DNA from: a virus
Taxonomy: Duplodnaviria; Caudoviricetes
Virus record (IMG/VR): IMGVR_UViG_3300009031_000221
Coordinates: 128,001-192,000 of that record
Reading direction: 5' to 3' (one strand)
DNA: 64,000 bases
In this document: positions 302-33,776 of the stretch, piece after piece
How the letters are laid out: each line of letters opens with the position of its first letter
How positions within the stretch are numbered: the first letter of the stretch is position 1
Program-made: the position numbers and the translations under genes
The notes under the pieces: generated by a model
What the model was told of the DNA's origin: nothing
Databases searched by the model: none
Seen by the model: only the letters and a program-made list of their open reading frames with translations

Positions 302-829
302 TCAGATACTCGTTTGCAGGACAAGCCTGAATTCGTTCTCGGGCCTGGGGACTTGTACTACGTAGGCTACATAGAATGTGTTGTTCCCTCGAGGGTCTAG
401 AATCTTAGGCCACTCATCCTCGTTGGTGAACCATCCGCGATTGCTGAATACCAAGCGCTCCCCTACGGTGTAGACAATAGGAACATTTGGGGGTCCAATG
501 CCATGGCGACTATCCCATGTATAGCGTTCATAGGTGTCAAATGATGCTAGCCACCCCCCAGCACAGAATATGGCATAGCCGTAGACAAGTTGATTTGCGG
601 ATGCCCCAATGAGTTTGTCCGATACCTCATCGGATCCCCATAGCAGGAATCCCCCGTAAATGCCGTCTGAGAACGTCACACGGAATTCATCTAGGGGTGA
701 ATCATCCCACTTGACTCCCTGGCCTCCAGGCCACCCTGCAGCCATCATATCGGGATGAACAGCCACAGGGTACGCATCCCCTTTGAAGTGGACAGTTACA
801 TCGCGTGTTCTGAAAATCTCAGCCATCAT
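302..829 (-). CDS. Putative virion (decoration-like) protein, paralogue 2
   Basis: Shares FKGDAY, GWPGGQGVKW, CAGGWL, SRHGIGPPNVPIVY, RLVFSNRG and QTSI with 826..1350. Confidence 0.75.
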   Translation of the reverse strand: MMAEIFRTRDVTVHFKGDAYPVAVHPDMMAAGWPGGQGVKWDDSPLDEFRVTFSDGIYGGFLLWGSDEVSDKLIGASANQLVYGYAIFCAGGWLASFDTYERYTWDSRHGIGPPNVPIVYTVGERLVFSNRGWFTNEDEWPKILDPRGNNTFYVAYVVQVPRPENEFRLVLQTSI

Positions 830-1350
830 ATACTCGTTTGAATGGTCATGTAGTAATTGTTATCTACCGAAGGGACTTGAATTACAAATCCGATGAAATA
901 GCTATTTGGTGCCCGTGGGTCTCCAGATAGGGACCATTCATCCTCAGTAGTCCATAAACCGCGATTGCTAAACACTAAACGATCACTCTCCTGATAGACG
1001 ATGGGGACGTTTGGAGGTCCAATACCGTGGCGACTATTCCAGGTATACTGCTCGAATGAGGTGGTCATGATGAGCCACCCCCCAGCGCATAAAGTCGCGA
1101 ACTTGTAATAGGGCTGATTCTCTGTTACGCCTGTGAACATGTCCCCGGATTCATTTGAACCATTCAGCAGGAAACCCGCGTAGTAACCATCGGATCGGGT
1201 GACGAAGAATCCATCCTTAGGATCATCATACCACTTGACTCCTTGACCACCGGGCCAACCTTCTTCTGCCAATGAATCGGAAATCTCGCAAAAGTATGCG
1301 TCTCCCTTGAACAGGACTACAACGTCACGAAATCGAGGGGTATCAGACAT
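826..1350 (-). CDS. Putative virion (decoration-like) protein, paralogue 1
   Basis: Paralogue of 302..829; late-promoter motif upstream (1391..1406). Confidence 0.75.
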   Translation of the reverse strand: MSDTPRFRDVVVLFKGDAYFCEISDSLAEEGWPGGQGVKWYDDPKDGFFVTRSDGYYAGFLLNGSNESGDMFTGVTENQPYYKFATLCAGGWLIMTTSFEQYTWNSRHGIGPPNVPIVYQESDRLVFSNRGLWTTEDEWSLSGDPRAPNSYFIGFVIQVPSVDNNYYMTIQTSI

Positions 1351-1427: not shown

Positions 1428-2648
1428 CTACTTCTTCTTCCGGATGCCGCGACCGGGCTTCTTTGCCGGGGGGGACTCAAGATGATTGTCTACCGCCTTC
1501 ATATGGCGCTTCAACTTCGCGACAACGGTATCCAGGTCATCCAGGTCAGTATCGTCCGGATGACGCCATATTGCCGAAAGATCATCGTCCAGTTTCTCTC
1601 CCTTCGCATTCGCCTTTCCGAACAACTCTTCCAACAGGGCATCCCCCGTCTTCACGTTATTACCCCAACCTTCAATGGCAGGGTTGTCAACACGGCTGAC
1701 AACGGTCTCCTCCTGAAACACATTCCCTGCCTCCGGAATGACGGACATACGAGGGTATTTGCTATTAGCAGGAGTGGTATTCGGGATCAAGCACAAGCCA
1801 TGCTTGGACTTGTCCGCAATACCGGAAGCCGGGGTCACATATGCCCATACATACTTACCGGAACGAACCAATTCCTGTGCCCCCGCCTTATCCGTTGCCG
1901 GTGCGTAATTCATGGGCCAATTGAAATCCTTGCCTTGCGCCGTGGAAAACTCGGAAGGCTGAGAAAGGTATGCGTCCCCCCTTGACATTCCATTCGGCAT
2001 ACTAGAACCGCCATTGAAAATCTTGGACACATCAGGTGCCGATTCCCACATGCCCGCAAGGGTTTCGAGTTCCAACGTACGATACTTCGCGGGCATGCTA
2101 CGCCGGTCTTTTCCGTCACTGTTGAGATCCCCAAAGGATTCCCACTTATCGTGACGCAGGGATTGCATTACAGCAAAGAACATTGCCCGTTGCGAAAGAT
2201 CCCCGTAAACCAGGATATCGTATCCAGCATCCCACAAATGCAGGTTCACTACATTCCCGTCATTCAACATGTACATGGACAGAACGGATCCCAACTCCTT
2301 GGTCTGATCCGTAATCGATTTGTCCATATCCAATGCGGCACGTAACCGATTCTTAAATGCTTCGACTTCAATTTCAATTTCAATTGGGGTGCAAACCGCT
2401 ACTTCGGATTGGGGTTCATCAACCTCAGGCGGAGAATCTTCCACAACCGGTGCTTGAACCGGGACGATTGCCGCAATCGTTTGCTTGATGACTAGTGCGT
2501 CCTCATGGAACGTATCTCTTGAGAATTGTCCGTTATTCCACCAGGCTACTTCAACTTGGTGACGACTTTGAATCAGGTCTGTTACAGTCACAACAGGAAT
2601 GGGGGTACCCGCAAGGTATACCAAATCACCAATCTTGAACTTGCTCAT
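1428..2648 (-). CDS. Hypothetical protein with N-terminal YodC/DUF2158-like SH3 module and internal copy of scaffold C-terminal peptide
   Basis: N-terminus FKIGDLVYL...VTV...VEVAWW...F; internal WESAPDVSKIFNG (2010..2048). Confidence 0.7.
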   Translation of the reverse strand: MSKFKIGDLVYLAGTPIPVVTVTDLIQSRHQVEVAWWNNGQFSRDTFHEDALVIKQTIAAIVPVQAPVVEDSPPEVDEPQSEVAVCTPIEIEIEVEAFKNRLRAALDMDKSITDQTKELGSVLSMYMLNDGNVVNLHLWDAGYDILVYGDLSQRAMFFAVMQSLRHDKWESFGDLNSDGKDRRSMPAKYRTLELETLAGMWESAPDVSKIFNGGSSMPNGMSRGDAYLSQPSEFSTAQGKDFNWPMNYAPATDKAGAQELVRSGKYVWAYVTPASGIADKSKHGLCLIPNTTPANSKYPRMSVIPEAGNVFQEETVVSRVDNPAIEGWGNNVKTGDALLEELFGKANAKGEKLDDDLSAIWRHPDDTDLDDLDTVVAKLKRHMKAVDNHLESPPAKKPGRGIRKKK

Positions 2649-2749
2649 ATTGCCTCGTGTGCGAAATACCCCGCACGTTAGGGCGATACTCTACCAAAGA
2701 ATCCATGTTCGGTAATCATTGAAATGCCAGATGCCTATTGGAGGCACGC

Positions 2750-2983
2750 ATGAAGCGATTTGTATTGATCCTGGTTACCCTAACTGGATGCTGCACAGCC
2801 AAGTTTTATGACCTGGATACGTGTGGGACACCAAACATCAGCCGGTGCGGTGTCACCGGGAACGTAGAACTATGTGGTCCAAACGGGCACTGGATGACCG
2901 TAATGAAATGCGCGGACCTCGGACCCGATTGGGCCTGCCGATATTCAGGAACACAACATGAATGCCATAGGAATGTACAATGA
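2750..2983 (+). CDS. Small Cys-rich lipoprotein
   Basis: GGAGG SD before ATG 2750; MKRFVLILVTLTG-C signal peptide/lipobox; several further Cys. Confidence 0.65.
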   Translation: MKRFVLILVTLTGCCTAKFYDLDTCGTPNISRCGVTGNVELCGPNGHWMTVMKCADLGPDWACRYSGTQHECHRNVQ

Positions 2984-3786: not shown

Positions 3787-4368
3787 ATGAAACCATCGGA
3801 AAGAATAGCTCTCATCGACATGGACGGCACGATTGCGGATCTCGATGGTCAGATGCAACAAGACCTGGAAAAGATGCGTTCCCCTGGGGAACCCCCTTTC
3901 GTTCCTGGCCCACAAGATGACCCGCCGCATATCGAAGCACGCAAGAATGCCATCAAACGGCAACCCGGTTGGTGGCGGCACTTGCCCACCCTCAGGGACG
4001 GATTTCGCATCGTCCATGCTCTACAGGAAGCAGGGTTCAGCCTGATGATCCTGACCAAAGGCCCTTACAAGACCACATCGGCTTGGACAGAGAAAGTGGA
4101 TTGGTGTCGAGAACACATTCCCGATGCACAAGTCACCATTGGCGAGGACAAAGGCCTTGTCTACGGGGCGGTGCTCGTCGATGATTGGCCTTTGTATATC
4201 CAAGGTTGGCTTGCACATCGTCCACGCGGGTTAGTGATCATGCCGGATCAACCGTGGAATAAAGATTTCCATCATCCTAATGTGTTTCGTTATCGAGGCC
4301 CGGAAGATGATTTGGGCATGGAACAACGAATTCAGGATCGGGTTGATTTAATGCGGATTCATTCGTAG
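3787..4368 (+). CDS. HAD-family 5'(3')-deoxyribonucleotidase (NT5C-like)
   Basis: IDMDGTIAD motif I, WTEKVDW, LVDD motif IV; start moved to ATG 3787 (AAGG upstream). Confidence 0.85.
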   Translation: MKPSERIALIDMDGTIADLDGQMQQDLEKMRSPGEPPFVPGPQDDPPHIEARKNAIKRQPGWWRHLPTLRDGFRIVHALQEAGFSLMILTKGPYKTTSAWTEKVDWCREHIPDAQVTIGEDKGLVYGAVLVDDWPLYIQGWLAHRPRGLVIMPDQPWNKDFHHPNVFRYRGPEDDLGMEQRIQDRVDLMRIHS

Positions 4369-5092
4369 ATTTTCGCCGTGCCCAAATGTTTTGCATAGAT
4401 ACCCTTCGTTTTTCCCGAGTTTCGGCACTGACGGGTCTACCCCGCACTGCATCCCCCATCTTAGCTCGACTTTCAGCACTGAAAACTTGATGTGATCGTG
4501 CCTCCCGAATTTTGGCACGAGTTTCTTGGGATGCATTAATCCCCAAATGGGATTTTGCTATCTTAGCCTTGGTTTCATCCGTGTGTTTCTTTTCCCGAAA
4601 CTTGGCTTTAGTTTCTTCCGTGTGTGTCCTGCCGGTTTGGCCCTTTGACATATTCACACGGGCTTCAGGGCTAGCTTTCGTCCCAAGTCGGGCTTCCCGA
4701 ATTCTTGCCCTGGTTTCAAGGGTCCGGATTTTGCCTTTGTTAGACGCACTGATTTTGGCACGGGTGGCATCAGAAACAATCCTGCAACCCGCCACAACAG
4801 GATCCAGGTTGTATCCCTTAGCACGTTCATCCGACATCATGTGTCGAATGTGGTGTTCTTCCCACATCGACAATTGTTCCACGGAACACAGTTGGAGGAC
4901 CCTAAATTCAAAAGCACCTTCACCGTATTTGTCCCATGACCGCTGTAGGTAGGAATTGTCATGCACCCCACGACGCAAATTCGATCGATGGTTGTACCAC
5001 CTGCCCCGAAATCCCTTTGTGGATCCTACATAGCACTTACCATTGATTGTGTTGAAAATGCCATAAACACCTGACGCATGTGCATATTCCAT
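4277..5092 (-). mobile_element. Free-standing GIY-YIG homing endonuclease with NUMOD3-like repeats
   Basis: SGVYGIFNTINGKCYVGST...RW..H..NL; repeated HTEETKAK/SAETREK DNA-binding motifs. Confidence 0.9.
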
Positions 5093-8104: not shown

Positions 8105-8120
8105 ATAAGGAAGCTAACGA
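8105..8120 (-). promoter_or_regulatory. Putative late promoter
   Basis: TCGTTA-gcttcc-TTAT. Confidence 0.55.
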
Positions 8121-9061
8121 GCCTCTACAATTGACGGGCGCCCCACCTTCCGTTCATGCTTGATATCCAATTTGACCATCCACCGATCTATCGTAGCTTG
8201 TCCGACACCCAATCGTTCAGCCATTGTACGGATAGGCATGTTATCCGCCGCCATTTTCGCCAATACCTCAGGCGTTACTTTCTGCCGAATATCATAATGA
8301 GGCCCTTGGAACCCAAAAGGCCCAAGCTTGTATGCCATGCACTCGGGGACATGCGGCTTGATCAATTCGATGAATCTATCCGCCGTGTCCTCCCGTTCCA
8401 TATGAAACTGTCCAGTGTTCCTGACCTTCAATTGCCAACGAGGTTTCAAACCGAACTTCTCAAATATCGACCACGCTACTTCCCTACTAGCATCATCAGC
8501 CCCAAATGTAATCCCAGGCCACCACCCGGCATAACCGTCATCCAAATACCATATAGCCAATGCGAACTCGTCAACCTTGTCCACAATCTGGGGAACCAAC
8601 CGTTTCCAACCCTTGTGTTGGTCGACATAGAACATTTCTTGCCATTCATTTAGGGAATCATGAGCACAAGTGAACATGCCCACTTGAGTGAATCCGCGTT
8701 GATCTGGGACATCCACCACGGGATTCGCCCAAGGCCCCCACAAGGCAGCCTTCCATTCCAGATAGGGGCGTTGTGCCCCGCAATGTCTTTCTGAGTAATG
8801 AGTGGCATTGACTCGACGTACTAGCCTGCCGTCCCCTAACATAGAACCGACCAATAATGATTGGAGCCGCCCTTCTATCGGAGTGACCTCATTCCTTGCC
8901 CATCGGGGCAATGTTTCAATGCCATAACGCTTCCGCCATGACATCACCCGTTTGGGTGACCCCTCTAATACACGGGATGCGATTTCGGCATCCGTCAATT
9001 TGAGGTCGTGTACCAAGTGCCGAAGTTCAATTGCTGTCATGGGACATGGAATCGTTTTCAT
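8114..9061 (-). mobile_element. Free-standing LAGLIDADG homing endonuclease with flanking HTH segments
   Basis: LLVGSMLGDG and LAIWYLDDG motifs; HTH-like ends (LTDAEIA..., IRTMAERLGVGQATIDRW). Confidence 0.85.
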
Positions 9062-9068
9062 AGGAATC

Positions 9069-9097
9069 AGTGTATTCGATAATTCCCCGAAATGCAA
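9069..9097 (-). promoter_or_regulatory. Sigma70-like promoter, leaderless geometry
   Basis: TTGCAT-N17-TACACT, then 7 nt to ATG 9061. Confidence 0.55.
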
Positions 9098-9186: not shown

Positions 9187-10062
9187 TTAGCGAGTGATCG
9201 TCAGACGTGCCAAACCACGAGGGTTGAACGCGCCAATACCCAAATTTTCGAATACTGAGAAGCCAATGGTACGTGCCTTGGGATCGTCAGCCGAAAGAAC
9301 CGTCAACTCAGTACGTACCGGAATACGTCCAAAGTGCTCAGGCTCGCAGCAAACGTACACCGTGCCAACAGGAACCAAACGGCTCGTGATGACAGATGCG
9401 CCCCACAGGGTGGCCATCAAGCCCGTCTTCAGCAAGGTTGCCTGAGACTCGATATCCAAGATATCGCGTCCAAACTTCCTCAAGTCCGCATAATCGCGGG
9501 CGTTCATGTAAATACGTGCTACACGCAAGTCATGACGCTCGATCAATGCGAATGCATCAGCGAGAACCGCACCCGAGATGGGGGCGACTACCGGGATGTC
9601 CGGGTTCAACTGCGCCGAGAGGGAGTCGAAGCCCGCCGTGGCGATAGAGTCCAGGATTGCGAACACACGCTCGTCTTCAGCTGCCTGAATCTGAGCACGG
9701 GCCAAGTCCTGGGCACGTTCGATCAAGTCGAACCTACGTTCCTTGATTTGCGTCAAAGGAATTTCGGGATTCGATGCGATCTCGAACAACGGAAAAATGA
9801 CACGCCTTGGCTTCGTGATAGCCAAGATGTTCTGACCTTCTTCACCGACCACGTACGCCGTAACGTCCGGGTCTTTATCGTAAATCGGGAGAGCGCCGTC
9901 AGGAAGCTGCTCTACCAAAAAGGTTTTCCGCCCAACAGCGGCATAATCGCGACGGGTACGCAGGGGCTGCGTCATGCTGGCTGCCAGCTTGACACGACCT
10001 GCAGGCGTCTTGATGTATTCGCCGATGATCTTCTGCTTGATTGCGTTGTTTACAGTACTCAT
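9187..10062 (-). CDS. Major capsid protein (HK97/encapsulin-like fold)
   Basis: 291 aa; position after protease-scaffold-decoration; FEIASNPEI...LIERAQ..A...IQAAED pattern; followed by a strong hairpin. Confidence 0.85.
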   Translation of the reverse strand: MSTVNNAIKQKIIGEYIKTPAGRVKLAASMTQPLRTRRDYAAVGRKTFLVEQLPDGALPIYDKDPDVTAYVVGEEGQNILAITKPRRVIFPLFEIASNPEIPLTQIKERRFDLIERAQDLARAQIQAAEDERVFAILDSIATAGFDSLSAQLNPDIPVVAPISGAVLADAFALIERHDLRVARIYMNARDYADLRKFGRDILDIESQATLLKTGLMATLWGASVITSRLVPVGTVYVCCEPEHFGRIPVRTELTVLSADDPKARTIGFSVFENLGIGAFNPRGLARLTITR

Positions 10063-10073
10063 GATGCTCCTCC

Positions 10074-10778
10074 TTAGATCCGCTGGTCGTAGACCAACTC
10101 GGTCTGGACTGCGTCAGGCGACATCTTGAGGACGCCGATGAGGGTTGAAGTTCCGGCGCCACCACCGCCAACGCCATTGCTGACGTAAGCTTCAGCCGAA
10201 ACCGAAATGACATCCTGTGTCACCATATCGGCATCAGCAGTGTTGTGGACCCACATGGGCGTCAAGTAGCCGTTCAGGGATGCGATGAGCCGGGCTCCCG
10301 CATAGTACCGAATGGCAGTTCCCTGTACCGGGTTACCGACCGTGCCGATGATCTGCGTCTCATACAATGCGTTCCCGTAGGTACCCATGGCAGAAACGTA
10401 GGGGCCAACGCCTGAAGCAACACCGGGGGTGTTCTCGAATGCGTTACCAACAGCGCTATTGATGAAACATCCAAGGGCCTTGAAACCAGCCTTCTCTTCA
10501 AATGACATCAGGGCGAGTTCGGTAGCGGTCACGGGACCACCAACGTAGTTCTCGCCATCACGAGCGCGGGAAAATGCAACAGACCCGGACAGAACGCCCG
10601 ACTTGGTCTGATTGACGCGAGTTGAAATTGTACCTACCGTCGTAATGACCGGCGGGTTGCTCTGGGTAAACGAATCGTCCGTGAGCACGCCGATGCTGTT
10701 GCGGATACCCACATTCAGCAAACGCAATGCGCTTGAGCTCTCCGTCCAACCGCCCGATGCCTGTCCAAGCAGTGGCAT
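10074..10778 (-). CDS. Head decoration/cement protein
   Basis: Between scaffold and MCP; YE...IRYYAGARLIASLNGYLT; ends LVYDQRI. Confidence 0.65.
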   Translation of the reverse strand: MPLLGQASGGWTESSSALRLLNVGIRNSIGVLTDDSFTQSNPPVITTVGTISTRVNQTKSGVLSGSVAFSRARDGENYVGGPVTATELALMSFEEKAGFKALGCFINSAVGNAFENTPGVASGVGPYVSAMGTYGNALYETQIIGTVGNPVQGTAIRYYAGARLIASLNGYLTPMWVHNTADADMVTQDVISVSAEAYVSNGVGGGGAGTSTLIGVLKMSPDAVQTELVYDQRI

Positions 10779-10906: not shown

Positions 10907-10922
10907 ATAAGCAAACAACCGA
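10907..10922 (-). promoter_or_regulatory. Putative late promoter for decoration-MCP operon
   Basis: TCGGTT-gtttgc-TTAT. Confidence 0.6.
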
Positions 10923-11021: not shown

Positions 11022-12776
11022 TTAGCCGTTGAAAACCTTGGAGACATCAGGTGCCGATTCCCACAAACGGGAGAGTTCGTCAACTTCACCGCCAGCCGAA
11101 GCCGTACGGGTCAATCCACCCACAGTGCGAACGCCGGTCGAAGCCTTGCGGGGCTGCGGACGCTGCGATGCAAGGCGCATGGCCTTCTTTGCAGCAGGGG
11201 AAGCATCCTCGTCTTCGCCTTCATCCTCATCCTCAGACTTCTTGGCCTTCTTGGATGCAACAGGAGCTTCCTCCTCTTCATCCTCATCCTCAGCCTCATC
11301 TTCCTCGGCGCCATCATCCTCATCCTCGTCCTCAGACTTCTTGGCCTTCTTGGATGCAACAGGAGCTTCCTCCTCTTCATCCTCATCCTCAGCCTTAGCG
11401 GACTTGCCGCCGAAGATCGATGCCAACAGCGCTTCGTCATCGTCGCCGAGAACGTCATCGCTACCGTCCGCGAGGCCCATCGGGTCTCCCGTCATGCCGA
11501 ACATACCGGCATCATCACCGCAAGCCTTCTTGCCTGCAGTAGGAGCATCCTCCTCATCTTCTTCATCCTCGGCCTCTGCCTTCTTCGCCTTCTTTCCGCC
11601 CTTCTTAGCTGCAACGGGAGCTTCCTCCTCATCTTCTTCAGCCTCAGCCTTCTTGGACGCAACAGGAGCTTCCTCTTCAGGTTCCGCCTTCTTGGCCTTG
11701 AGTGCCTTGAGCTTGGCAGCCTTCATGAAGGTAGCTTCCATCTCGGAAAGCATTGCAGCCTCAGCGGGATCAAGTCCAGCTACGGTTGTAACAGCCGCTA
11801 CGACAGGCTCAGGGGACAACGCATCAATAACTTCTTCCGAAGCCAGGATACCATCACGGTCAGTATCCAGGGCAGCGAACAGATCCTGCGATCCAACCCA
11901 CTCCGCCTGCATTACAAATCCGTCATTGTCCGTATCCATCGAAGCGAAGAACTTGCGTGCAGCCTTGCGAGCGGCAGCTTCCTTCTTTTCCTCGGGCTTG
12001 TCTTCGGGCTTGACTTCGGGTTCATCCTCGCCTTCGGCCTTCTTGGCTTCCTTGCGGGCTGCATCCTCATCCTTGGCCTTGGGGGCCAACGTCGGACCCT
12101 TGGGGTCATTCTGGTCAGCCTTCTTGAGGCTTTGTACCTTCTCGGTCAAAGCCGAAAGGGCACCCAGAACCTCGTCCATTTCAGACTTCTTTCCAGCATC
12201 AGGGGCTTCCTCAGCCAACATCATGTCCAGATCGTCATCATCCATATCGCCAAAGTCATTGGCAGGACCACCGAAATCATCAAAGTCGGGTTCGCCAAAA
12301 TCAGCCTGAGGAGCCATTTCCTCAGCCAAGAATCCTCCACCGATACGCTCCAATGTTGCATTGATGCGGGAATCCGACCAATCCATCATATCGAGCGCTT
12401 GATTTTCAACTGTATCGGATGAAGCCTTCTTGCCAAGCATGGCGCGAGCAATGCGAATGCACTTCTGTGCCTTGCGCTCCACGGCTGCACGCAAACTACG
12501 TGCTTCCTTGGGGACGCGGGGCTGCTCCTTGTGGGCAGGGTGATCCTGATCTTCCGTATCGTAGCCAGGAATGGCCGGGGGGTTACCCTGGGCATACGGG
12601 GGCTTCCGAACGTCCTCAGCCCATGCTGAAGGATCGCCTTTCTTGTAGGCCTCATAGGCAGGATCTGCCTGATGGGCGGGGTGGTCTTGATCCTCAGTAC
12701 CGTAACCGGGGATCTGGGGGGCGGCAGACGCCGAACGTCCTGCCGCCCACGTCATGCGATTCCTATTGGTGCTCAT
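11022..12776 (-). CDS. Capsid scaffolding protein (acidic, low complexity, EF-hand pair)
   Basis: Between protease and decoration/MCP; TGATG overlap with the protease stop and AGGAG SD; E/D/K/A-rich; ends WESAPDVSKVFNG. Confidence 0.75.
   Translation of the reverse strand: MSTNRNRMTWAAGRSASAAPQIPGYGTEDQDHPAHQADPAYEAYKKGDPSAWAEDVRKPPYAQGNPPAIPGYDTEDQDHPAHKEQPRVPKEARSLRAAVERKAQKCIRIARAMLGKKASSDTVENQALDMMDWSDSRINATLERIGGGFLAEEMAPQADFGEPDFDDFGGPANDFGDMDDDDLDMMLAEEAPDAGKKSEMDEVLGALSALTEKVQSLKKADQNDPKGPTLAPKAKDEDAARKEAKKAEGEDEPEVKPEDKPEEKKEAAARKAARKFFASMDTDNDGFVMQAEWVGSQDLFAALDTDRDGILASEEVIDALSPEPVVAAVTTVAGLDPAEAAMLSEMEATFMKAAKLKALKAKKAEPEEEAPVASKKAEAEEDEEEAPVAAKKGGKKAKKAEAEDEEDEEDAPTAGKKACGDDAGMFGMTGDPMGLADGSDDVLGDDDEALLASIFGGKSAKAEDEDEEEEAPVASKKAKKSEDEDEDDGAEEDEAEDEDEEEEAPVASKKAKKSEDEDEGEDEDASPAAKKAMRLASQRPQPRKASTGVRTVGGLTRTASAGGEVDELSRLWESAPDVSKVFNG
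11231..11395. repeat. 66-bp perfect direct repeat in scaffold gene
   Basis: 11231..11296 equals 11330..11395 (AEDEDEEEEAPVASKKAKKSE), offset 99 nt. Confidence 0.9.
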
Positions 12777-14299
12777 CACTTTTCTCCTCGCTGTGGCGAC
12801 TGCCTGGTATTTCCAGCCTTTCCCGAAGTACATCCCCGTGAAAGAAGTTTGCCAAGACGAATTAACGTCTTAGCCTCATCCATGTTGGGTTCGCGTCCCA
12901 TTGCCAGGCGGCAGGCATGAATGAAGGAATTAGCAGAACCATACCTATTGGAACCACCGACCTGCAGTGCAGTGCGATAAATTCCAACGGGGACAGTAAT
13001 GCCGATTTGCTGATTGAACACCGCCACGCGGTTGATCAGGTCAGCGTCAGATGATGCAGTACGGACAATATCGTCCAATCCTGCCTGATATGCTTTGCGT
13101 GCCATTGAGGCTTGCTTATTGAGCGTCTCGTTGGTGCTGCTATTTCCAGGGGCTGGCGGGGCCAAATCCTTCTGGAGACGATCCTGCACTCGAGTAATAA
13201 GATGGTTGTAAACCGCGTCCTCTACATCCTTGAATGGAGTGGGCGGCGCTACAGGTGCTGCCGGGGCTACTGGAGCCGGGGCCTCAGGGGCTCCGTCCTC
13301 ATCTTCCCATCCAGCAAAGAAATCATCGGATGCATCCACATTGATTCTGCCCGTACGTGCCGGGGGTCCAACACGGGATACTATCACCGCATCAACAGGG
13401 GTAGATGCCGCCTTGAGGCGATCATCCTTCGTCCACTGAGGAGGAGGAGTTGACAAAACCTTCTTAGCCTTCTTCGCAGTCTCAGGGCTAAACTCTAGAA
13501 CGTTCCGAAGCACTGCCCCAGTAAATGCAGGCGTGCCAACCCAGGATGCTTCAATAAACTGTACGCCGCCTGTTGGTCCTAATGACTCATGGCCACACAG
13601 TTCCGCAATACGATGCTTGTTGCCATTCTCGTCAAAGAACGTGTTACCCTTGGCATATTTGATGTGAGGGCACATCTCCGTTTCATCAGCAGCCCAATGT
13701 CCACACTTGGTGCAAATAGTCCCGTCAACAGTGCAGCCCATTGATAGGGTGCCCATTTTTCCGGACTCAATAGCCTTGACCAAATCTTCATGCTTGCGAT
13801 CCGTGGCAATCAGGATATCCACATAGATGGAATCCCCAATGTCACGTGCCACGGCATCAATGATTCTGCCCTTGGACAATTCTTCTACTTGGACGTGTTC
13901 AACGAAATTATGCCCGCCAACGAATGTTTGGTAGGAAGACATCAATACAGGGCGATTCCAACAATCCATGTTGTTATTGATGAATTGATCACTCGCAGGC
14001 TTAACACGGAAATCGCTAAACTTCCGATTAACCCGGAACCCATCCTCCATTACGGAGCCCGTTTTGATTCCCTGGGGTGAATAGGTATCTACCGACGCAA
14101 TAATTGTGGCATGCGTTAGGAGATAATTATTCGGATTGAATGTCTCACCGAAAAATTCAGATGCCCGATCTACAAGGGATCCGCTTAGATCCCCTTCAAC
14201 CTTGGCGTCTTTGCTTCCAGCTGTCCGGATGTTACTCCATTCAGTTTGGGAAACGTGTGGGCGAACTACCTGAGCACAGGCGTACTTCATGAATGCCAT
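12776..14299 (-). CDS. Prohead (capsid maturation) serine protease with Cys/His-rich insertion
   Basis: HK97-type protease motifs FVEHV, TLSMGC and FIEASWVGTPAF; CTKCGH...CPH...CGH insertion. Confidence 0.75.
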   Translation of the reverse strand: MAFMKYACAQVVRPHVSQTEWSNIRTAGSKDAKVEGDLSGSLVDRASEFFGETFNPNNYLLTHATIIASVDTYSPQGIKTGSVMEDGFRVNRKFSDFRVKPASDQFINNNMDCWNRPVLMSSYQTFVGGHNFVEHVQVEELSKGRIIDAVARDIGDSIYVDILIATDRKHEDLVKAIESGKMGTLSMGCTVDGTICTKCGHWAADETEMCPHIKYAKGNTFFDENGNKHRIAELCGHESLGPTGGVQFIEASWVGTPAFTGAVLRNVLEFSPETAKKAKKVLSTPPPQWTKDDRLKAASTPVDAVIVSRVGPPARTGRINVDASDDFFAGWEDEDGAPEAPAPVAPAAPVAPPTPFKDVEDAVYNHLITRVQDRLQKDLAPPAPGNSSTNETLNKQASMARKAYQAGLDDIVRTASSDADLINRVAVFNQQIGITVPVGIYRTALQVGGSNRYGSANSFIHACRLAMGREPNMDEAKTLIRLGKLLSRGCTSGKAGNTRQSPQRGEK

Positions 14300-15919: not shown

Positions 15920-15935
15920 ATAAGGACACTATCGA
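15920..15935 (-). promoter_or_regulatory. Putative late promoter
   Basis: TCGATA-gtgtcc-TTAT. Confidence 0.55.
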
Positions 15936-15970: not shown

Positions 15971-18900
15971 TCACCTCTGTTGTCTCATCCAGGTCATTCG
16001 TACTCGACCTTGATATTGTGAGGTTTTACCTGGAGAAGACCCTGAGGAATCTGCACCCCCCATTATCGCCCCCATACTCTCCATAAACTCATCTGGAGTC
16101 ATGTCCTTCATGCGCTCCCGAGTTTCTGGCTTTGCGTGCTCAAGAAAGTCCCTCATCAACTCGGCGGGGGATTTATCCTTGATTTTGTCTTTGTTGGCAG
16201 CGTGGAATTCCTCAATAGCGGATTTGTCTGCCGGGTGTACCTTCGGTATGGCAGGAGGCTCATCATCTTCAGGTGCTTCCTCAGGTTCTGCCTTCACGTA
16301 CTTCTTATCCAGTTCCCCAACATCCCCGGTTTCAATAACACGCCGCATCTGTACTACCGATGGGTCATCATCCGGTGGATCCCAACCTTCTGCTTTCATC
16401 GCTTCCATCTGGGCTTTCAGATATGCTACACGGGCTATTGGCCCCTTTGTATCCTTGCACGCCTGCATAGCGGCAACGTCACTTCCTGAATCCCTTAGGC
16501 ACTTCGTCATCTCATCGGCAGCCTTGATATATTCAGGGGAACTAGATGCCTTGTCATGAACACGGGCGTTCAATGCTTCCATCTCTTTGGGGCTAATCTT
16601 CTTGCGAGCCTTGGCACCGGATTCGGGCTTCGCTTCTTCACCCTTGTCCTCACCCTCTCCCCCTTCCGATATATCAAATCCGGCTTGTAGGGACGCATGA
16701 CTGGTAGTCATATTGTCAACAGCCATGTCGTTGAGGAAATTCTTGAGGACTTCCTTTGCTTCCTTGGACACGTCCCCACTATTGAGTGCCCGAAACATCG
16801 GATCTTCCTTGGCGAACCCGTGTACAACAGCGATGTCCTTATCCTTCATTGAATCAAGGGCTTTCCTAATGCGTTCTCGTGAATCTGGGCTATAAAAGTT
16901 GTCAGGACTGCCCAACAATAAATCGGCTGAACCCTTGTCTATCATAGCCTTGGCTAATGCTACGTACTGCCGGGAAGGGCTAGGCTGTAGGGGTTTCCCA
17001 TCAACCATAATGGGTTTATCCCCATTGGCAATTGCCGCTAGATTCAATCCACTTAGGACACTTTTCAATTCCGAATGTAGAGGGGAACCCGGTTTGGCCT
17101 TGGCTATCTCCGCTACAACATGCTGTGTTGCCGCATCCCGTTCCTTTGAATCTATATCACCACTCATGTATTGCTTGTATGCAGTGGTAGCACGGGCATT
17201 CAACTGATCTGGACTCTTCGGTTCATTATTCGCATCCTGTCCCCCAATGTTCACGGGACCAGAACGAACTACGGGAGGCTTCTTATCTTTGGGGGCCTTT
17301 TCCGCCGGCGTTGCTGGAGGCGTAGCCGCAGGAGGCGTTGGCGCCGCTGGCGCTGCCGCAGGAGGCGTTGGCGCTGCCGCAGGAGGCGTTGGCGCCGCTG
17401 GCGCTGCTGCAGGCGGGGCGGGAACCTCAGGGGCGGGAGTTGCCGCCGGTGCTTCTGTAGATCCTGGCGCCTTCGCAAGATCCCGGATGCCGGAAAGGGA
17501 ATCGTTGCGAAGTTTTTCAGCCGCATCCATCATAGTTTGTGATTCAGCCTTCGCCTTGTCACTCTTAGAGTTTTCCATTGCCTTAGATGCGAGCCGCAAA
17601 TCCGTAGTAGATTTGTTGAAATCCTTTACGGCTTTATCCAATGCGGGCTTATGCTTAGCGAGTTCGGGATCGGACTCATACATAGCATCAAGATCCTTCA
17701 TGATGCCCCGTATATTCTTGCTATTCCCTTCCTCTAAAGCCTTTGCCAAATTGTCAATATGCTCCCCATGCTTCTTAGCAGGATCCTCTGTGGGTGCCTT
17801 CGCACCGCCCTCGCCTTTGTCCTCGCCGGTACCCTCAGCAGTCTCACCCTTGGCATAAGCCTCTGCCTGTTCCTTTTCCTCAAATGTCTCCCGGTCACCA
17901 TCGGGGTTCTTAGCAGCCCAACCTTTATCGGTTTGCCACACTTCCCCAGGTTTATGTTCAGGTTCATCAGTCTTGGGCGTATCAGGGCCTTCTGGACCCT
18001 TTGGACCTTCTGGCCCCTTTGGACCTGTGGGTCCAGGAGGTGCTGGGGGCACTGCAGACCCTTTACTCAACACCCACTGATATGCTACACGCTTGTAATT
18101 CAAAGATAGATCAGGATCATCCTCAGCCCCACCATCAGCTACGGATGGTTTATCCGGGTCTACTCGGTGATTCCGAAGATCCTGACGTGGGGGCTTCGAC
18201 TTTGGGGCGGGACGGATATTGGCATTCGCCGCATCATCCTCCCTCTCCGCATGCGTCTTGGTAGCTACACGTGCCATCCCCGTTGCAGGATCCAGTGATT
18301 CTAAGCACTGATCACATACACCCGTCACAGACAATCGATCCGAATGCAACCACTTAGGGCATCGGCACTGAATCACATTCCCACAGTAATGACATTCCAA
18401 TCGGAAATGGCCAATACCCGACGCATGAATAGCCTTCAGCGTATGCCCTTTACGAATGAATTGAGCCAACAAGGCCCTGTTAATATCAAATGCGGCTTTG
18501 GAGAAACCCTTCTTTTCAAAGGACTCCGATACATTTCCATCCTTGAGGTATTCATCCTCAAGCCCCGGCACAAGATATTGGCTTCGCAACGTGGCAGATT
18601 CGTGTCCTACAGCTTCAGCCGTTTCATCCAATGCCGTCTTAAACTCACCCTTGAGTTTCTTTTCACGTTCCTTCTTATCGGTTGGGAGCTTTCCCCCCTT
18701 GGAACGGACGGCCTTGAGGCGTTCCTGCATTTCCGTATTAGCGTGAAACCCTCGAATGTCCTTGGCGGATATATCGAAAGGCTTCAGGTAAACGTTCACA
18801 TCCTCCGCAGTGATACGGCAATCCTCACCCTCACATAGTGGGGAGTCCTCGCCCTTACCCTTCGTGGCATCCTTCAAGGCTTTGACTAATACTGCGTCTT

Positions 18901-21367
18901 TCACTTCCTTAACATGATCCACACCCGACTTGCCAACATACTTAACGGTTGCCTTGCCCCCAGAAAACGTAACATGCTTCTTACGCCAACCGGTAACCCC
19001 GAAATGCCCTTCCTTGGCGGATTCATCATTGCCAACACGCTCGAAGGTTTCATCCATCAACCCGACAGCCAATGCCGTGTACCGAATCTTTTCATCATCA
19101 GACTTCAGGTCTTTGCGATACTGCGCCCGTAGTTTATCGATATGCCCTCGGAGCTTTTCAATTTGCCCCGCCTTGTCCTTGTTACGATCCGCAATCTGAC
19201 GGTCACTATACTCATAGACGATCATATCTTCGCCGTCTTTGGTCTTGACCTTCTTCTTGTCCTGGTATTTGGCAGCTACTCGACGTGCAGCCATCAATCG
19301 AATGTATTCCGGAGTGTGCCCCACCAAACCTTCCTTACCATCAGCTAATAGCTCAATATCCCCCGCAATTGGGGGCTTTGGGGGTGCCTTGTCTTCCCGA
19401 ATCTTGAATAGGTTGACAACTTGTTTCTTTCCGGTAGGAGTTTCGATTAGAACTGTTGGGTCGCCCTTCTCGCTAACCCCGAAGTCCCTGATTAGCCCAT
19501 GCTTATTCTTGTATTTTCCGAACAGAACAGGATCCCCTTCGTTGACATTGAATACTTTTGCGATATGCACAGGCTGTTCCATGTATCGATTCGCAACTCG
19601 AACTTCTATGGACAATGCAGTCTTCCCCCTACGAGCCATCTCCACATGAATTCGGTTTTCCCACCTTGAAGCGGAAGTAGCCAGTACGGGGTCATCAAGC
19701 AATACCGTCCGTGCGGTATCCATTAATGTACGAATCTCCGCACCCTTGAGTTCGTATTTACGAATCTGTCCGGGCATATCGATAACTTTGCCCGGTTGCT
19801 CCAGGACATCTACAAATGCCTCGCCCTCTTCAGCACCCATCTGAACCGTGATTTCCCGAACGCGATCCTTCTGGGCGGGTGTCAAGAACCCCAAGCGCCT
19901 GCCCACGGGCATACCCAAATCCATCAAGTCAAACAGGAATGCCAAATCCCCCTTTCGTTCCGCCCAGTTTGCCAATGCCTCACGGAAGGGTTTATCCGAC
20001 TGTGCAATGGACTTGACAACATCCAGCAATCCTAGTTTGTCCATTTCCAACAATGCACGTTTGCCAACCCCTGTTTCATAGAACAAGGTGATGATCATAT
20101 TAGACAAATGCCCGCCAGGAATATTGCGGAGCTTGTCCTTGTTCTTCTTGATGGATGCTTCAACCTCGGGATCGATCTTGAATCCATATTTCAACAGGAA
20201 CTTGATAGCCCGAATCATCCGGCTGGGGTCATCCGAGAATGTCTGGTCGGGGCTAGAAGGGCAACGCATTACCCCTTCCTGAAGATCCTTCAGGCCACAA
20301 CCCGTCAAGTCCAGGATTTCCGCTTTATCCGGCCCATCCGCCAAGTCATGCATTCTCCACAATAGAGTGTTGAATGTGAATTCACGACGAAATGTGTCAT
20401 CCTTGATATTGGCTGGGGCGACTGCATCAGGCTTATAGCCTCCCGCATAGGATTCAGTACGGGCATTTGCAATCTCAATGACCTCACCCGATAGATTCTG
20501 TCCCCCGACTTCCCAATCACCTTTGATGGTGAGGATTGCCACCCCATAGTTATTGGTTGTCAAGTTCGTGTCAGTTGGGATTGCCCGCTGCAACTGCTTG
20601 GCAAACCATTCCGAATCCTTACCCTTTAGTGCTACCGAATCAATGACGACATCGATGTCCTTGATAGGTTCCTTGATGATGAAATTACGTACAGCCCCAC
20701 CAACAACGTAGACATGCTTGGATACGCCCAGCTTTGTAGCCACGTTGGACAGGAACTTCATTAGTTCTACAGATACCTGATGTTGCATGGCGTCTACAAT
20801 ACGGGAGGCCATTCGGGTAGGATTCCCAAATTCCACTACATGAACCTTGGGCAAACCCCATATCTCGATGCCATCGAACGTCCAATCCCCCTGCGGAAGG
20901 ATCCCATCAAATTCGGTTTCCAGGCCGTCTAGGTATGCCAAGGTGACGTGCGGGGAGTAGACCAGGGGAAAGTAGTCATCTACATCAAATCCGGCGCCCA
21001 TGAGGGCATCCCGGAGTTTCCACCGCAATGCAGCCAAGTCATGGCTGTACCGAACTCGCATAATCGCGACTCGCCGTTCCTTGTCGGGTTGTGCAAAATA
21101 GTCTGGCCCATATACATGGGCTTTCACACCACCCCGAATTTCAGCCAATACACGAGATGAAATATCCAGGAATTCGGATTCCCGTTCCTTGGATACGGTG
21201 CCTACATACAGGAATGTTGTATGTGGGACGGATTGATCCTCGGACCCAAGATCAGGAAACTGATCCCCCAATTCTTTGGATAGAGGGATGAAGAACCCTA
21301 CACCTGTGCCGTCACCGGTTTTCTTACCGTCAGACGCACCCGCGTATTTATTCCAAGCTGTGATCAC
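15971..21367 (-). CDS. Multidomain polyprotein: 2H phosphoesterase, CCA/poly(A)-type nucleotidyltransferase, SH3-like domain, DNA topoisomerase IB, Zn finger, Pro/Ala-rich tail
   Basis: 2H motifs PHTT and PHVT. NTase motifs VGGAVRN..DID, DDTFRREFTFN and DDPSRMIRA. Topo IB motifs ERVGN, GKSG, KDIRGFHAN, GH and SQYL. Zn finger CHYC..C.C...CDQC. Confidence 0.9.
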   Translation of the reverse strand: MITAWNKYAGASDGKKTGDGTGVGFFIPLSKELGDQFPDLGSEDQSVPHTTFLYVGTVSKERESEFLDISSRVLAEIRGGVKAHVYGPDYFAQPDKERRVAIMRVRYSHDLAALRWKLRDALMGAGFDVDDYFPLVYSPHVTLAYLDGLETEFDGILPQGDWTFDGIEIWGLPKVHVVEFGNPTRMASRIVDAMQHQVSVELMKFLSNVATKLGVSKHVYVVGGAVRNFIIKEPIKDIDVVIDSVALKGKDSEWFAKQLQRAIPTDTNLTTNNYGVAILTIKGDWEVGGQNLSGEVIEIANARTESYAGGYKPDAVAPANIKDDTFRREFTFNTLLWRMHDLADGPDKAEILDLTGCGLKDLQEGVMRCPSSPDQTFSDDPSRMIRAIKFLLKYGFKIDPEVEASIKKNKDKLRNIPGGHLSNMIITLFYETGVGKRALLEMDKLGLLDVVKSIAQSDKPFREALANWAERKGDLAFLFDLMDLGMPVGRRLGFLTPAQKDRVREITVQMGAEEGEAFVDVLEQPGKVIDMPGQIRKYELKGAEIRTLMDTARTVLLDDPVLATSASRWENRIHVEMARRGKTALSIEVRVANRYMEQPVHIAKVFNVNEGDPVLFGKYKNKHGLIRDFGVSEKGDPTVLIETPTGKKQVVNLFKIREDKAPPKPPIAGDIELLADGKEGLVGHTPEYIRLMAARRVAAKYQDKKKVKTKDGEDMIVYEYSDRQIADRNKDKAGQIEKLRGHIDKLRAQYRKDLKSDDEKIRYTALAVGLMDETFERVGNDESAKEGHFGVTGWRKKHVTFSGGKATVKYVGKSGVDHVKEVKDAVLVKALKDATKGKGEDSPLCEGEDCRITAEDVNVYLKPFDISAKDIRGFHANTEMQERLKAVRSKGGKLPTDKKEREKKLKGEFKTALDETAEAVGHESATLRSQYLVPGLEDEYLKDGNVSESFEKKGFSKAAFDINRALLAQFIRKGHTLKAIHASGIGHFRLECHYCGNVIQCRCPKWLHSDRLSVTGVCDQCLESLDPATGMARVATKTHAEREDDAANANIRPAPKSKPPRQDLRNHRVDPDKPSVADGGAEDDPDLSLNYKRVAYQWVLSKGSAVPPAPPGPTGPKGPEGPKGPEGPDTPKTDEPEHKPGEVWQTDKGWAAKNPDGDRETFEEKEQAEAYAKGETAEGTGEDKGEGGAKAPTEDPAKKHGEHIDNLAKALEEGNSKNIRGIMKDLDAMYESDPELAKHKPALDKAVKDFNKSTTDLRLASKAMENSKSDKAKAESQTMMDAAEKLRNDSLSGIRDLAKAPGSTEAPAATPAPEVPAPPAAAPAAPTPPAAAPTPPAAAPAAPTPPAATPPATPAEKAPKDKKPPVVRSGPVNIGGQDANNEPKSPDQLNARATTAYKQYMSGDIDSKERDAATQHVVAEIAKAKPGSPLHSELKSVLSGLNLAAIANGDKPIMVDGKPLQPSPSRQYVALAKAMIDKGSADLLLGSPDNFYSPDSRERIRKALDSMKDKDIAVVHGFAKEDPMFRALNSGDVSKEAKEVLKNFLNDMAVDNMTTSHASLQAGFDISEGGEGEDKGEEAKPESGAKARKKISPKEMEALNARVHDKASSSPEYIKAADEMTKCLRDSGSDVAAMQACKDTKGPIARVAYLKAQMEAMKAEGWDPPDDDPSVVQMRRVIETGDVGELDKKYVKAEPEEAPEDDEPPAIPKVHPADKSAIEEFHAANKDKIKDKSPAELMRDFLEHAKPETRERMKDMTPDEFMESMGAIMGGADSSGSSPGKTSQYQGRVRMTWMRQQR
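17325..17405. repeat. Tandem 30/21/30-nt repeats encoding a TPPAA(APA) linker
   Basis: gccgcaggaggcgttggcg(ccgctggcg)ct x3. Confidence 0.85.
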
Positions 21368-21391: not shown

Positions 21392-21407
21392 ATAGACTTA
21401 GAACCGA
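21392..21407 (-). promoter_or_regulatory. Putative late promoter for the polyprotein
   Basis: TCGGTT-ctaagt-CTAT, 25 nt upstream of ATG 21367. Confidence 0.6.
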
Positions 21408-30018: not shown

Positions 30019-30034
30019 ATAGGAAGATAACCAA
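30019..30034 (-). promoter_or_regulatory. Putative late promoter
   Basis: TTGGTT-atcttc-CTAT. Confidence 0.5.
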
Positions 30035-33760: not shown

Positions 33761-33776
33761 ATAAGTCATTTACCGA
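33761..33776 (-). promoter_or_regulatory. Putative late promoter at head of structural run
   Basis: TCGGTA-aatgac-TTAT. Confidence 0.6.

Follow-up and report, generated by a model that had tools for sequence, protein, structure and literature searches.

In the head-gene region of a huge uncultivated phage from groundwater metagenomes, the 13-residue peptide that ends a putative scaffold protein occurs a second time inside a separate protein, ORF406 (P0001, 406 residues, 1428..2648 (-)), whose gene lies 9 kb from the scaffold tail. The window, i.e. the whole stretch of 64,000 nucleotides analysed, covers positions 128001-192000 of a single 536,053-bp virus record (52% G+C); coordinates refer to the window, with (-) for the minus strand. 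The internal copy, hereafter the tag, is read here as a mimic of the scaffold tail that may dock ORF406-type proteins on the partner of the scaffold, presumably the inner capsid surface; we give this reading a probability of roughly 0.55. Probably, the peptide serves as a handle that can be re-used for docking on the capsid during assembly. The sequence WESAPDVSK[V/I]FNG was present exactly twice in the 536-kb genome. As WESAPDVSKVFNG, directly followed by the stop codon, it forms the C-terminal tail of the 603-aa scaffold-like protein (11025..11063 (-), identified by translation, tail conservation and a profile hidden Markov model (HMM) of such tails); as WESAPDVSKIFNG it occupies residues 201-213 of ORF406 (2010..2048 (-), identified by DNA alignment, genome scan and the tail HMM). 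The scaffold ends in ...EVDELSRL-WESAPDVSKVFNG, and residues 192-219 of ORF406 read ...LELETLAGM-WESAPDVSKIFNG-GSSMPNG.... An earlier interpretation of this DNA, termed here the sequence-only reading, had described 36 of 39 identical nucleotides with one V/I exchange, two silent changes and unrelated flanks, and the DNA alignment agreed in each point. The copies differ by GTG/GTC (silent), ATT/GTT (I/V) and AAT/AAC (silent), 38 of 41 positions are identical if two further bases are counted, the last sense codon of the scaffold is the exact limit of DNA identity, and neither flank aligns. Scanned in six frames with up to five mismatches allowed, the complete genome of 536,053 bp gave no third copy. 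The profile HMM, built from 85 scaffold tails, recovered the scaffold with E 4e-14 and ORF406 with E 4e-8, followed by a next match with E 0.5. The two genes are separate, and their products have only 13-21 residues in common. The prohead-protease-like protein lacks the motif in the genome scan and the tail HMM search.

The source of the peptide, the acidic 603-aa protein P0002 (11022..12833 (-), pI 4.45, two EF-hand matches), is encoded between the prohead-protease-like gene and the major capsid gene, an order present in all long related loci. Gene order and composition mark it as a putative scaffold; Pfam and PHROG searches gave no scaffold family, but EF-hand models only. Its tail is highly conserved. 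With W as start of the motif and negative positions for the residues before it, 85 of 85 distinct tails retain L-x-x-L-W-x-S-x-PDVS-x-[VIF]-F, with W, P, D, V and F invariant, S/T at +7, L/I at -4 and L/I/M at -1, whereas positions +1, +3 and +8 vary. The motif lies 0-9 residues ahead of the stop codon in all 110 IMG/VR motif matches, and the same distance was found in the 41 of 80 capsid-anchored IMG/VR loci in which the scaffold end was present. Some natural scaffolds have up to 9-11 residues beyond the motif, so a free C-terminus right at the motif is not required. Phages with a capsid protein of only 65-72% identity still keep the tail motif. At the DNA level, orthologous tails match the tail in the window at only 21-33 of 39 nt, with freely varying codons; conservation in the protein together with freedom in the codons is as expected of a binding element. 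The scaffold body diverges to 40-60% identity among relatives, while the capsid protein and the tail are the most conserved elements of the head module. In its sequence, the tail fits a putative helix-then-hook pattern, a heptad-like E-[VI]-x-x-L-x-x-L-W followed by a Pro-containing hook near the stop; the corresponding amphipathic stretch EVDELSRL is located at 11064..11087 (-). The proposal of a conserved, functional element at the end of the scaffold thus holds for the tails, and so does the proposal of a similar helix ahead of both copies: L at -4 and L/M at -1 are near-invariant in scaffold tails and present in ORF406. The residue after L-W may be E, A, D, K or T, and L-W-E as a T4-like L-x-E protease site was rejected on account of this variation. 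The EF-hand loops of the scaffold (11832-11936 (-)) scored 27.1 bits with EF-hand_6 and 26.3 bits with EF-hand_1, which pass or nearly pass the Pfam thresholds; faint EF-hand matches also turned up on the scaffolds of the related loci L209, L213 and L214 and on that of another close relative. The products of the genes around the capsid gene (scaffold, decoration and protease proteins) fall to 40-60% identity among the relatives.

The sequence-only reading had described a transplant of the peptide into an unrelated protein, a view that has to be revised. By alignment, ORF406 is a member of a small head-region family (F1) and not an arbitrary recipient of the tag. The other members are a 406-aa protein of the related phage L208 (L208:12456-13673), a 408-aa protein of L209 (L209:12781-14004) and the 282-aa protein P0003 of L082, the gene of which directly follows the capsid gene. 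Only an inspection of the gene neighbourhoods in close capsid-protein relatives brought up the L208 and L209 homologues; their genes stand directly upstream of the first decoration-like paralogue, matching the site of ORF406, which in the window is immediately followed by the first of the tandem decoration-like paralogues (826..1350 (-), from neighbourhood comparison). ORF406 and P0003 are related with a BLASTP E value of 4e-14 over 142 residues, and P0003 aligns to ORF406 residues 192-324 with 35% identity. The four-way alignment has 26 invariant columns, and the family HMM matches these proteins only. All four have in common a putative pre-tag helix (L-x-x-x-L), a post-tag 'M-P', a W..[FY] core and a basic tail, the net charge over the last 20 residues being +4 to +5 in each. 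The L208 and L209 homologues show a dN/dS of 0.25, which indicates a real gene under purifying selection. Beyond these relatives little was recovered: a word-indexed database search with ORF406 returned only ORF406 itself, an exhaustive HMMER search only P0003 and a 58-aa DUF2158-like protein matching the N-terminus, IMG/VR scans with ORF406, P0125 (see below) and the F1 family alignments nothing, and profile searches of F1 against Pfam, PHROGs and PDB no assignment. The F1 gene was missing in L017, L018, L020, L030, L032 and in four records of 222-619 kb; the genes on either side of the ORF406 site are directly adjacent in L017 and its close relatives.

At the tag position the L208 homologue carries LLSSLWDSSPDVSSVFNT and the L209 homologue LLSSLWVSDPDVSSVFNT, the scaffold of each phage ending in LSRLWESSPDVSKVFGN before the stop; P0003 has TLKDVW-ISSEEEGQVAAAL-KVF, and the scaffold of L082 ends in MWKSDPDVSKVFNG. 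Two of the three ORF406 homologues thus keep the internal motif at the homologous position, as LLSSLW[DV]S[SD]PDVSSVFNT at the syntenic site, and within it L208 and L209 differ twice, at +1 and +3, positions also variable among scaffolds. P0003 retains W, S and KVF, with the PDVS core replaced. Homologues without the peptide or with a decaying one had been named beforehand as evidence against a tag; L208 and L209 keep it, and the loss of PDVS in P0003 is the part of this objection that stands. A further internal copy was found outside the family, in the closest large relative, L203 (a 520,740-bp ENA scaffold with a 98% identical capsid protein). Its 281-aa protein P0125, encoded two genes after the capsid gene, carries SLSGLWTSEPDVSAIFDG internally and is related to ORF406 over 24 residues only (SLSGLWTSEPDVSAIFDGSSSSPS vs TLAGMWESAPDVSKIFNGGSSMPN). 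The P0125 tag agrees with its own scaffold tail at only 19/33 nt from W to F, or 20/36 over a slightly longer stretch, yet all invariant residues are kept; the motif is therefore maintained at the protein level. A derivation of the acidic N-terminal half of P0125 from a partial scaffold duplicate (DEFAAIFAG vs scaffold ALLAEIFGG) was considered and rejected, as BLASTP supports the tag only.

The search of genome and relatives proposed in the sequence-only reading thus gave two copies here and internal copies in L208, L209 and P0125 of L203. Retention of the internal position in two of three homologues, together with the diverged codons of the unrelated P0125, supports the earlier view that the presence of the peptide in ORF406 is no accident. 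All tagged genes are at most about 8 kb from the capsid gene, on the same strand, and adjoin capsid or decoration genes. Internal tags were absent from L210 and L212-L214 (capsid protein 92-94% identical), from four large IMG/VR relatives in a pattern scan, and from the 110 IMG/VR motif matches. A pattern of motif plus sense continuation had no match in IMG/VR and one in the JGI metagenomes, a scaffold ending in ...FNGSTK. Judged from these comparisons, internal tagging is real yet limited to a narrow subclade.

Nucleotide identities between tags and tails were counted over 33 nt, from W to F, so the numbers behind the following comparison are small. The tag of ORF406 agreed with its own scaffold at 31/33 nt and with the tags of the L208 and L209 homologues at 25/33 and 23/33 nt. 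The L208 tag matched its own scaffold at 29/33 nt, the L209 tag its own at 27/33 nt, and the two tags each other at 28/33 nt; the scaffolds of the window genome (G000) and of L208 agreed at 26/33 nt. Each F1 tag is nearer to the scaffold tail of its own genome than to the tag of the more distant phage, which suggests that the scaffold gene has repeatedly acted as donor in short-patch gene conversion. Between the near-identical phages L208 and L209, the similarity of the two tags is about that of each tag to its own scaffold. Homologous flanks on both sides in the members mark the tag as ancestral in F1; the present sequence in ORF406 is young, as its 36/39 nt identity with the resident scaffold is above that of any orthologous tail (21-33/39). 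This pattern points to a concerted evolution of the tag and the resident scaffold tail by gene conversion. Of the transplanted tag in the sequence-only reading, the tag stood, but the single transplantation gives way to an ancestral F1 feature under concerted evolution. That the two homing-endonuclease genes located between the copies promote such repair events is speculation.

The ORF406 gene has a GAGG ribosome-binding site 5 nt upstream of its ATG. Residues 1-59 (2472..2648 (-)) form a small DUF2158/YodC-like domain, assigned by PHROG, Pfam and structure matches (phrog_3261 E 1e-5; PF09926 weak, E 0.11; P0004 E 9e-4; an ESM Atlas structural match with TM 0.77), which has no counterpart in the other F1 members. 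Ahead of the tag, the stretch LELETLAGM (residues 192-200, 2049..2075 (-); tail HMM and alignment) probably forms a helix; it retains the scaffold-tail features L(-4), hydrophobic residues at -1 and -7 and E(-8), and is homologous to the pre-tag stretch of P0003 and the L208 and L209 proteins. Behind the tag follows, by alignment, the Gly/Ser-rich linker GSSMPNGMSRG (1977..2009 (-)), with the pattern 'S-x-M-P' common to F1 members; the unrelated tagged P0125 has 'G-S-S-S-S-P'. The conserved F1 core, W..[FY].PA.D..GA.EL.R.G.Y.W, spans residues 238-324 (1677..1937 (-); HMMER, BLASTP and four-way alignment). A second, partial tail-like element, DLSAIW at residues 356-361 (1566..1583 (-)), was noticed as a weak second domain of the tail HMM and in the alignment; elements of the type DLSA[IL]W near the end occur in three of the four F1 proteins and not in P0003. 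The counterparts in L208 and L209, DLSALW and DLASLW, are followed by ELEAIFGKK, which resembles the scaffold-internal ALLASIFGGK. The protein closes with the basic tail PPAKKPGRGIRKKK (1431..1472 (-), from net charge), so that 193 residues separate the tag from the stop codon, compared to the scaffold tails near the stop. Inspection by eye gave no canonical slippery site for a frameshift product ending after the tag. Structure prediction was of little help: AlphaFold2 on a 2-sequence alignment yielded a mean pLDDT of 29 and was unusable, and in the ESM Atlas model (pLDDT 0.38) only the DUF2158-like N-terminus was recognisable. The ORF406 stretch was recovered in DNA sequencing runs only, no RNA run containing it. 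Two short sediment-metagenome contigs of a different study are about 98% identical to the ORF406 start and its upstream region (window 2574-2800); the phage or a very close relative therefore occurs beyond the source groundwater samples.

A mechanism that fits these observations would start from the scaffold. Its 13-residue peptide and the short preceding helix would be the conserved C-terminal docking element, which, by analogy with other phages, would anchor the scaffold on the inward-facing side of the HK97-fold capsid protein during procapsid formation; the inner surface of the capsid protein is, on this analogy, the most likely partner of the tail. ORF406, with the element placed between a variable N-terminal part and a conserved core with basic tail, would bind the same site as the scaffold tail and thus reach the interior or the inner wall of the procapsid under assembly, where it would be a minor internal protein or an accessory of assembly. 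Recurrent conversion of short patches, with the scaffold gene as donor, would keep the tag matched to the resident scaffold. In favour of docking are the site in the head region on the same strand, adjoining capsid or decoration genes, the maintenance of the tag at the protein level in two frameworks unrelated to each other, the flexible Gly/Ser linker that follows it, and the basic C-terminal tails, which internal head proteins associated with DNA commonly have. Several observations weigh against it. F1 is confined to a narrow subclade and absent from relatives with 88-94% capsid identity, thus it is not essential for assembly, and P0003 without the PDVS core indicates that the element is dispensable for at least one F1 member. 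The motif is C-terminal in each of the 110 IMG/VR scaffold matches, so that an internal copy is outside the natural range. The scaffold itself matches no known scaffold family, its role being deduced from gene order and composition. A complex prediction of the capsid protein (36-sequence alignment) with ORF406 residues 178-227 scored 0.00, with a partner pLDDT of 28-29, in a run without controls, a score that speaks neither for nor against binding. Directly upstream of ORF406 no late-promoter-like motif was present.

The closest known parallel is the staphylococcal phage 80alpha, in which a helix-and-hook made up of the final 16-21 residues of the scaffold sits on the capsid N-arm; the CpmB protein of SaPI1 has in common with this scaffold the C-terminal helix-and-hook with an RIIK motif that binds the N-arm (PMC5644958). 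The likeness would consist in a putative amphipathic helix and short hook at the scaffold end, and in a second, otherwise different protein with the same element. The sequences, W-x-S-x-PDVS-x-[VIF]-F here and RIIK there, differ, so there is no homology and the two at most work alike. Moreover, the second protein is phage-encoded here and satellite-encoded there, and the copy is internal and apparently matched to the scaffold by gene conversion, whereas theirs is C-terminal; binding by the internal copy would be a prediction from sequence. Portable loading peptides in large phages are represented by the T4 capsid-targeting sequence on IPI-III and Alt (Mullaney and Black 1996, as cited in PMC7411985) and by the long propeptides of head proteins in the giant phage SPN3US (PMC7411985). 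In these systems, too, a short peptide loads accessory proteins into the prohead, and the passengers are often basic and stay with the DNA. The T4 peptide, however, stands at the N-terminus, attaches to the core of the scaffold, is cut off by gp21 at L/I-x-E and does not mimic a scaffold tail; the tag of ORF406 lies at residues 201-213 of 406, and the +1 position of L-W-E is not conserved. Two head-assembly proteins that enter the procapsid by the same capsid-binding end are also familiar from the nested protease/scaffold genes with one common C-terminus, lambda C/Nu3 and herpesvirus UL26/UL26.5, and from the C-terminal targeting tail of the HK97 protease. The lambda and herpesvirus pairs arise by in-frame nested translation of one gene, unlike the two separate genes found here. 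In encapsulins a short peptide directs diverse cargo into the lumen of an HK97-fold shell, with the same tag on different cargo domains; those peptides are terminal and of an unrelated motif, and the present context is the head module of a 536-kb tailed phage with protease, scaffold, capsid and decoration genes.

Among the alternatives, a variant of docking in which the tag belongs to a detachable mini-scaffold propeptide is possible, though we would not expect it. The N-terminal part with the tag would dock on the scaffold site of the capsid, and the protease would cut the linker directly behind the tag. The N-terminal fragment, ending exactly like the scaffold, would leave the head with it, while the core and basic tail would remain inside with the DNA as an ejected or DNA-bound protein. 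Conversion would update the tag, and the subclade would possess a modular, self-updating loading system with swappable cargo (F1, P0125). The chain as a whole is what we consider improbable.

A by-product without function is an unlikely explanation as well. In this case a patch of the scaffold 3' end would have been copied into ORF406 during double-strand-break repair and would persist because it is harmless. The young age of the copy, judged by its higher identity with the resident scaffold than with orthologous tails, the LAGLIDADG and GIY-YIG endonuclease genes between the two copies, and P0003, in which F1 manages without the PDVS core, are all compatible with such an origin. Yet the shared tract keeps the reading frame and stops precisely with the last sense codon, the homologues in L208 and L209 place the motif identically but in other codons with every invariant residue kept, and the unrelated P0125 keeps it in spite of the low nucleotide identity with its scaffold. 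Repeated conversion in three genomes would be hard to explain without an ancestral tag as target. With the copies in L208, L209 and P0125, a purely neutral conversion product is unlikely.

No better supported is a role of ORF406 as a competitor or modulator that occupies scaffold-binding sites and thereby tunes occupancy, capsid size or timing, or hinders co-infecting relatives. F1 is accessory and patchy in distribution, the tail is near-identical across hundreds of related phages, so that a mimic would act on all of them, and SaPI1 CpmB provides a precedent, as it uses the docking motif of the 80alpha scaffold to redirect capsid size (PMC5644958). However, the gene is encoded by the phage in its own head operon region and not by a satellite, ORF406 is neither small nor dimeric, unlike CpmB, and the basic C-terminal tail and the conserved globular core look more like those of a carried protein. 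Taken together, the observations would suit a passenger as well as a competitor.

We consider it still more doubtful that the peptide docks on a partner other than the capsid protein, i.e. the prohead protease, the portal or the 234-aa protein of the module, and marks protease substrates or portal- or vertex-associated proteins. The overlap of the protease-like gene with the scaffold gene and the conservation of the 234-aa protein with the module would suit such a role, and proteases and cleaved head proteins of giant phages are targeted by terminal propeptides (PMC7411985). On the other side, nothing else in the module is as conserved as the tail and the capsid protein, a T4-type L-x-E cleavage at L-W-E is unlikely with a varying +1 residue, and in every structurally studied scaffold known to us the C-terminus touches the capsid protein. 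In 80alpha, it is the capsid protein that the scaffold C-terminus contacts (PMC5644958). A chance resemblance can be practically dismissed at 36 of 39 nt and just two profile matches in 536 kb, with the next at E 0.5; by a rough estimate, fewer than 1e-10 matches of such quality are expected.

If docking by a mimic of the scaffold tail is accepted, three features would appear to be new: the tag is internal, it sits on accessory proteins encoded by the phages of a huge-phage clade themselves, and gene conversion would match it to the scaffold. Huge phages carry many head proteins, and their addressing is known for few cultured models, such as T4 with its capsid-targeting sequence and SPN3US with its propeptides. 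A different addressing rule is suggested here by sequence alone, in which the docking tail of the scaffold is re-used internally on accessory proteins of the head region. If true, an element of 13-21 residues would be a simple predictor of packaged proteins in a widespread groundwater and sediment clade (more than 2000 capsid-protein clusters), a natural case of such tags working away from the chain end, and a small handle by which foreign proteins could be loaded into HK97-fold shells. A first functional clue is gained, too, for four or five proteins without detectable relatives elsewhere.

Of the remaining genes of the module, the one at 9187..10062 (-) codes for the HK97-fold major capsid protein, presumably the partner of the tail (phrog_2522 E 1e-48; PF25209 on homologues), the one at 12776..14299 (-), which overlaps the scaffold start, for the prohead-protease-like protein (phrog_18299 E 1e-13), and the one at 10074..10778 (-) for the 234-aa protein, conserved with the module by gene order. 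Domain matches identified a LAGLIDADG endonuclease directly after the capsid gene (8114..9097 (-)) and a GIY-YIG/NUMOD3 endonuclease 3 kb further on (4277..5092 (-)). The minus-strand order protease-like, 603-aa, 234-aa, capsid, LAGLIDADG is conserved in every long related locus. About 30 related loci likewise have a LAGLIDADG gene directly after the capsid gene. The gene that takes the place of the protease gene in L210 codes for 1755 aa with faint Hint/intein and LAGLIDADG matches, which suggests an intein. The capsid protein has 2101 related clusters, the best 120 of these 2101 being at least 88% identical, on contigs that reach 619 kb and come from many habitats. A conserved giant enzyme protein of the head module, with 1798 aa, is encoded upstream of the head genes at 15971-21367 (-); its counterparts in relatives have 1749-3381 aa, several of them with PolyA_pol and Topoisom_I Pfam matches.

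The motif TYGDTW-N6-YTAT occurs eight times in the window, compared to about two expected. Seven of the sites are on the minus strand at gene boundaries of the structural region (1391-1406, 8105-8120, 10907-10922, 15920-15935, 21392-21407, 30019-30034 and 33761-33776), which is consistent with a phage-specific promoter class. The putative late-promoter copy at 1391-1406 sits downstream of ORF406.

The variable stretch behind the capsid gene is a hotspot of accessory genes among the relatives. An Acb2/Tad1-hairpin gene (anti-CBASS sponge-like) follows the capsid gene in L213 (L213:12338-12580), L214 (L214:12338-12580) and the P0012 contig, and genes for AdoMet decarboxylase or OMP decarboxylase are also present in this slot. 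In sister phages, several different proteins whose genes closely follow the capsid gene open with the N-terminal peptide ELKEALIKLGTTNPELRQHIRPLL of about 25 residues (L203:13171-13881, L208:11259-11732, L209:11020-11340 and L209:11355-12056). The genome of the window has one copy of this type, at 385433-385468 (-) of the record, far from the window. This peptide may be a second, N-terminal, portable peptide in the clade.

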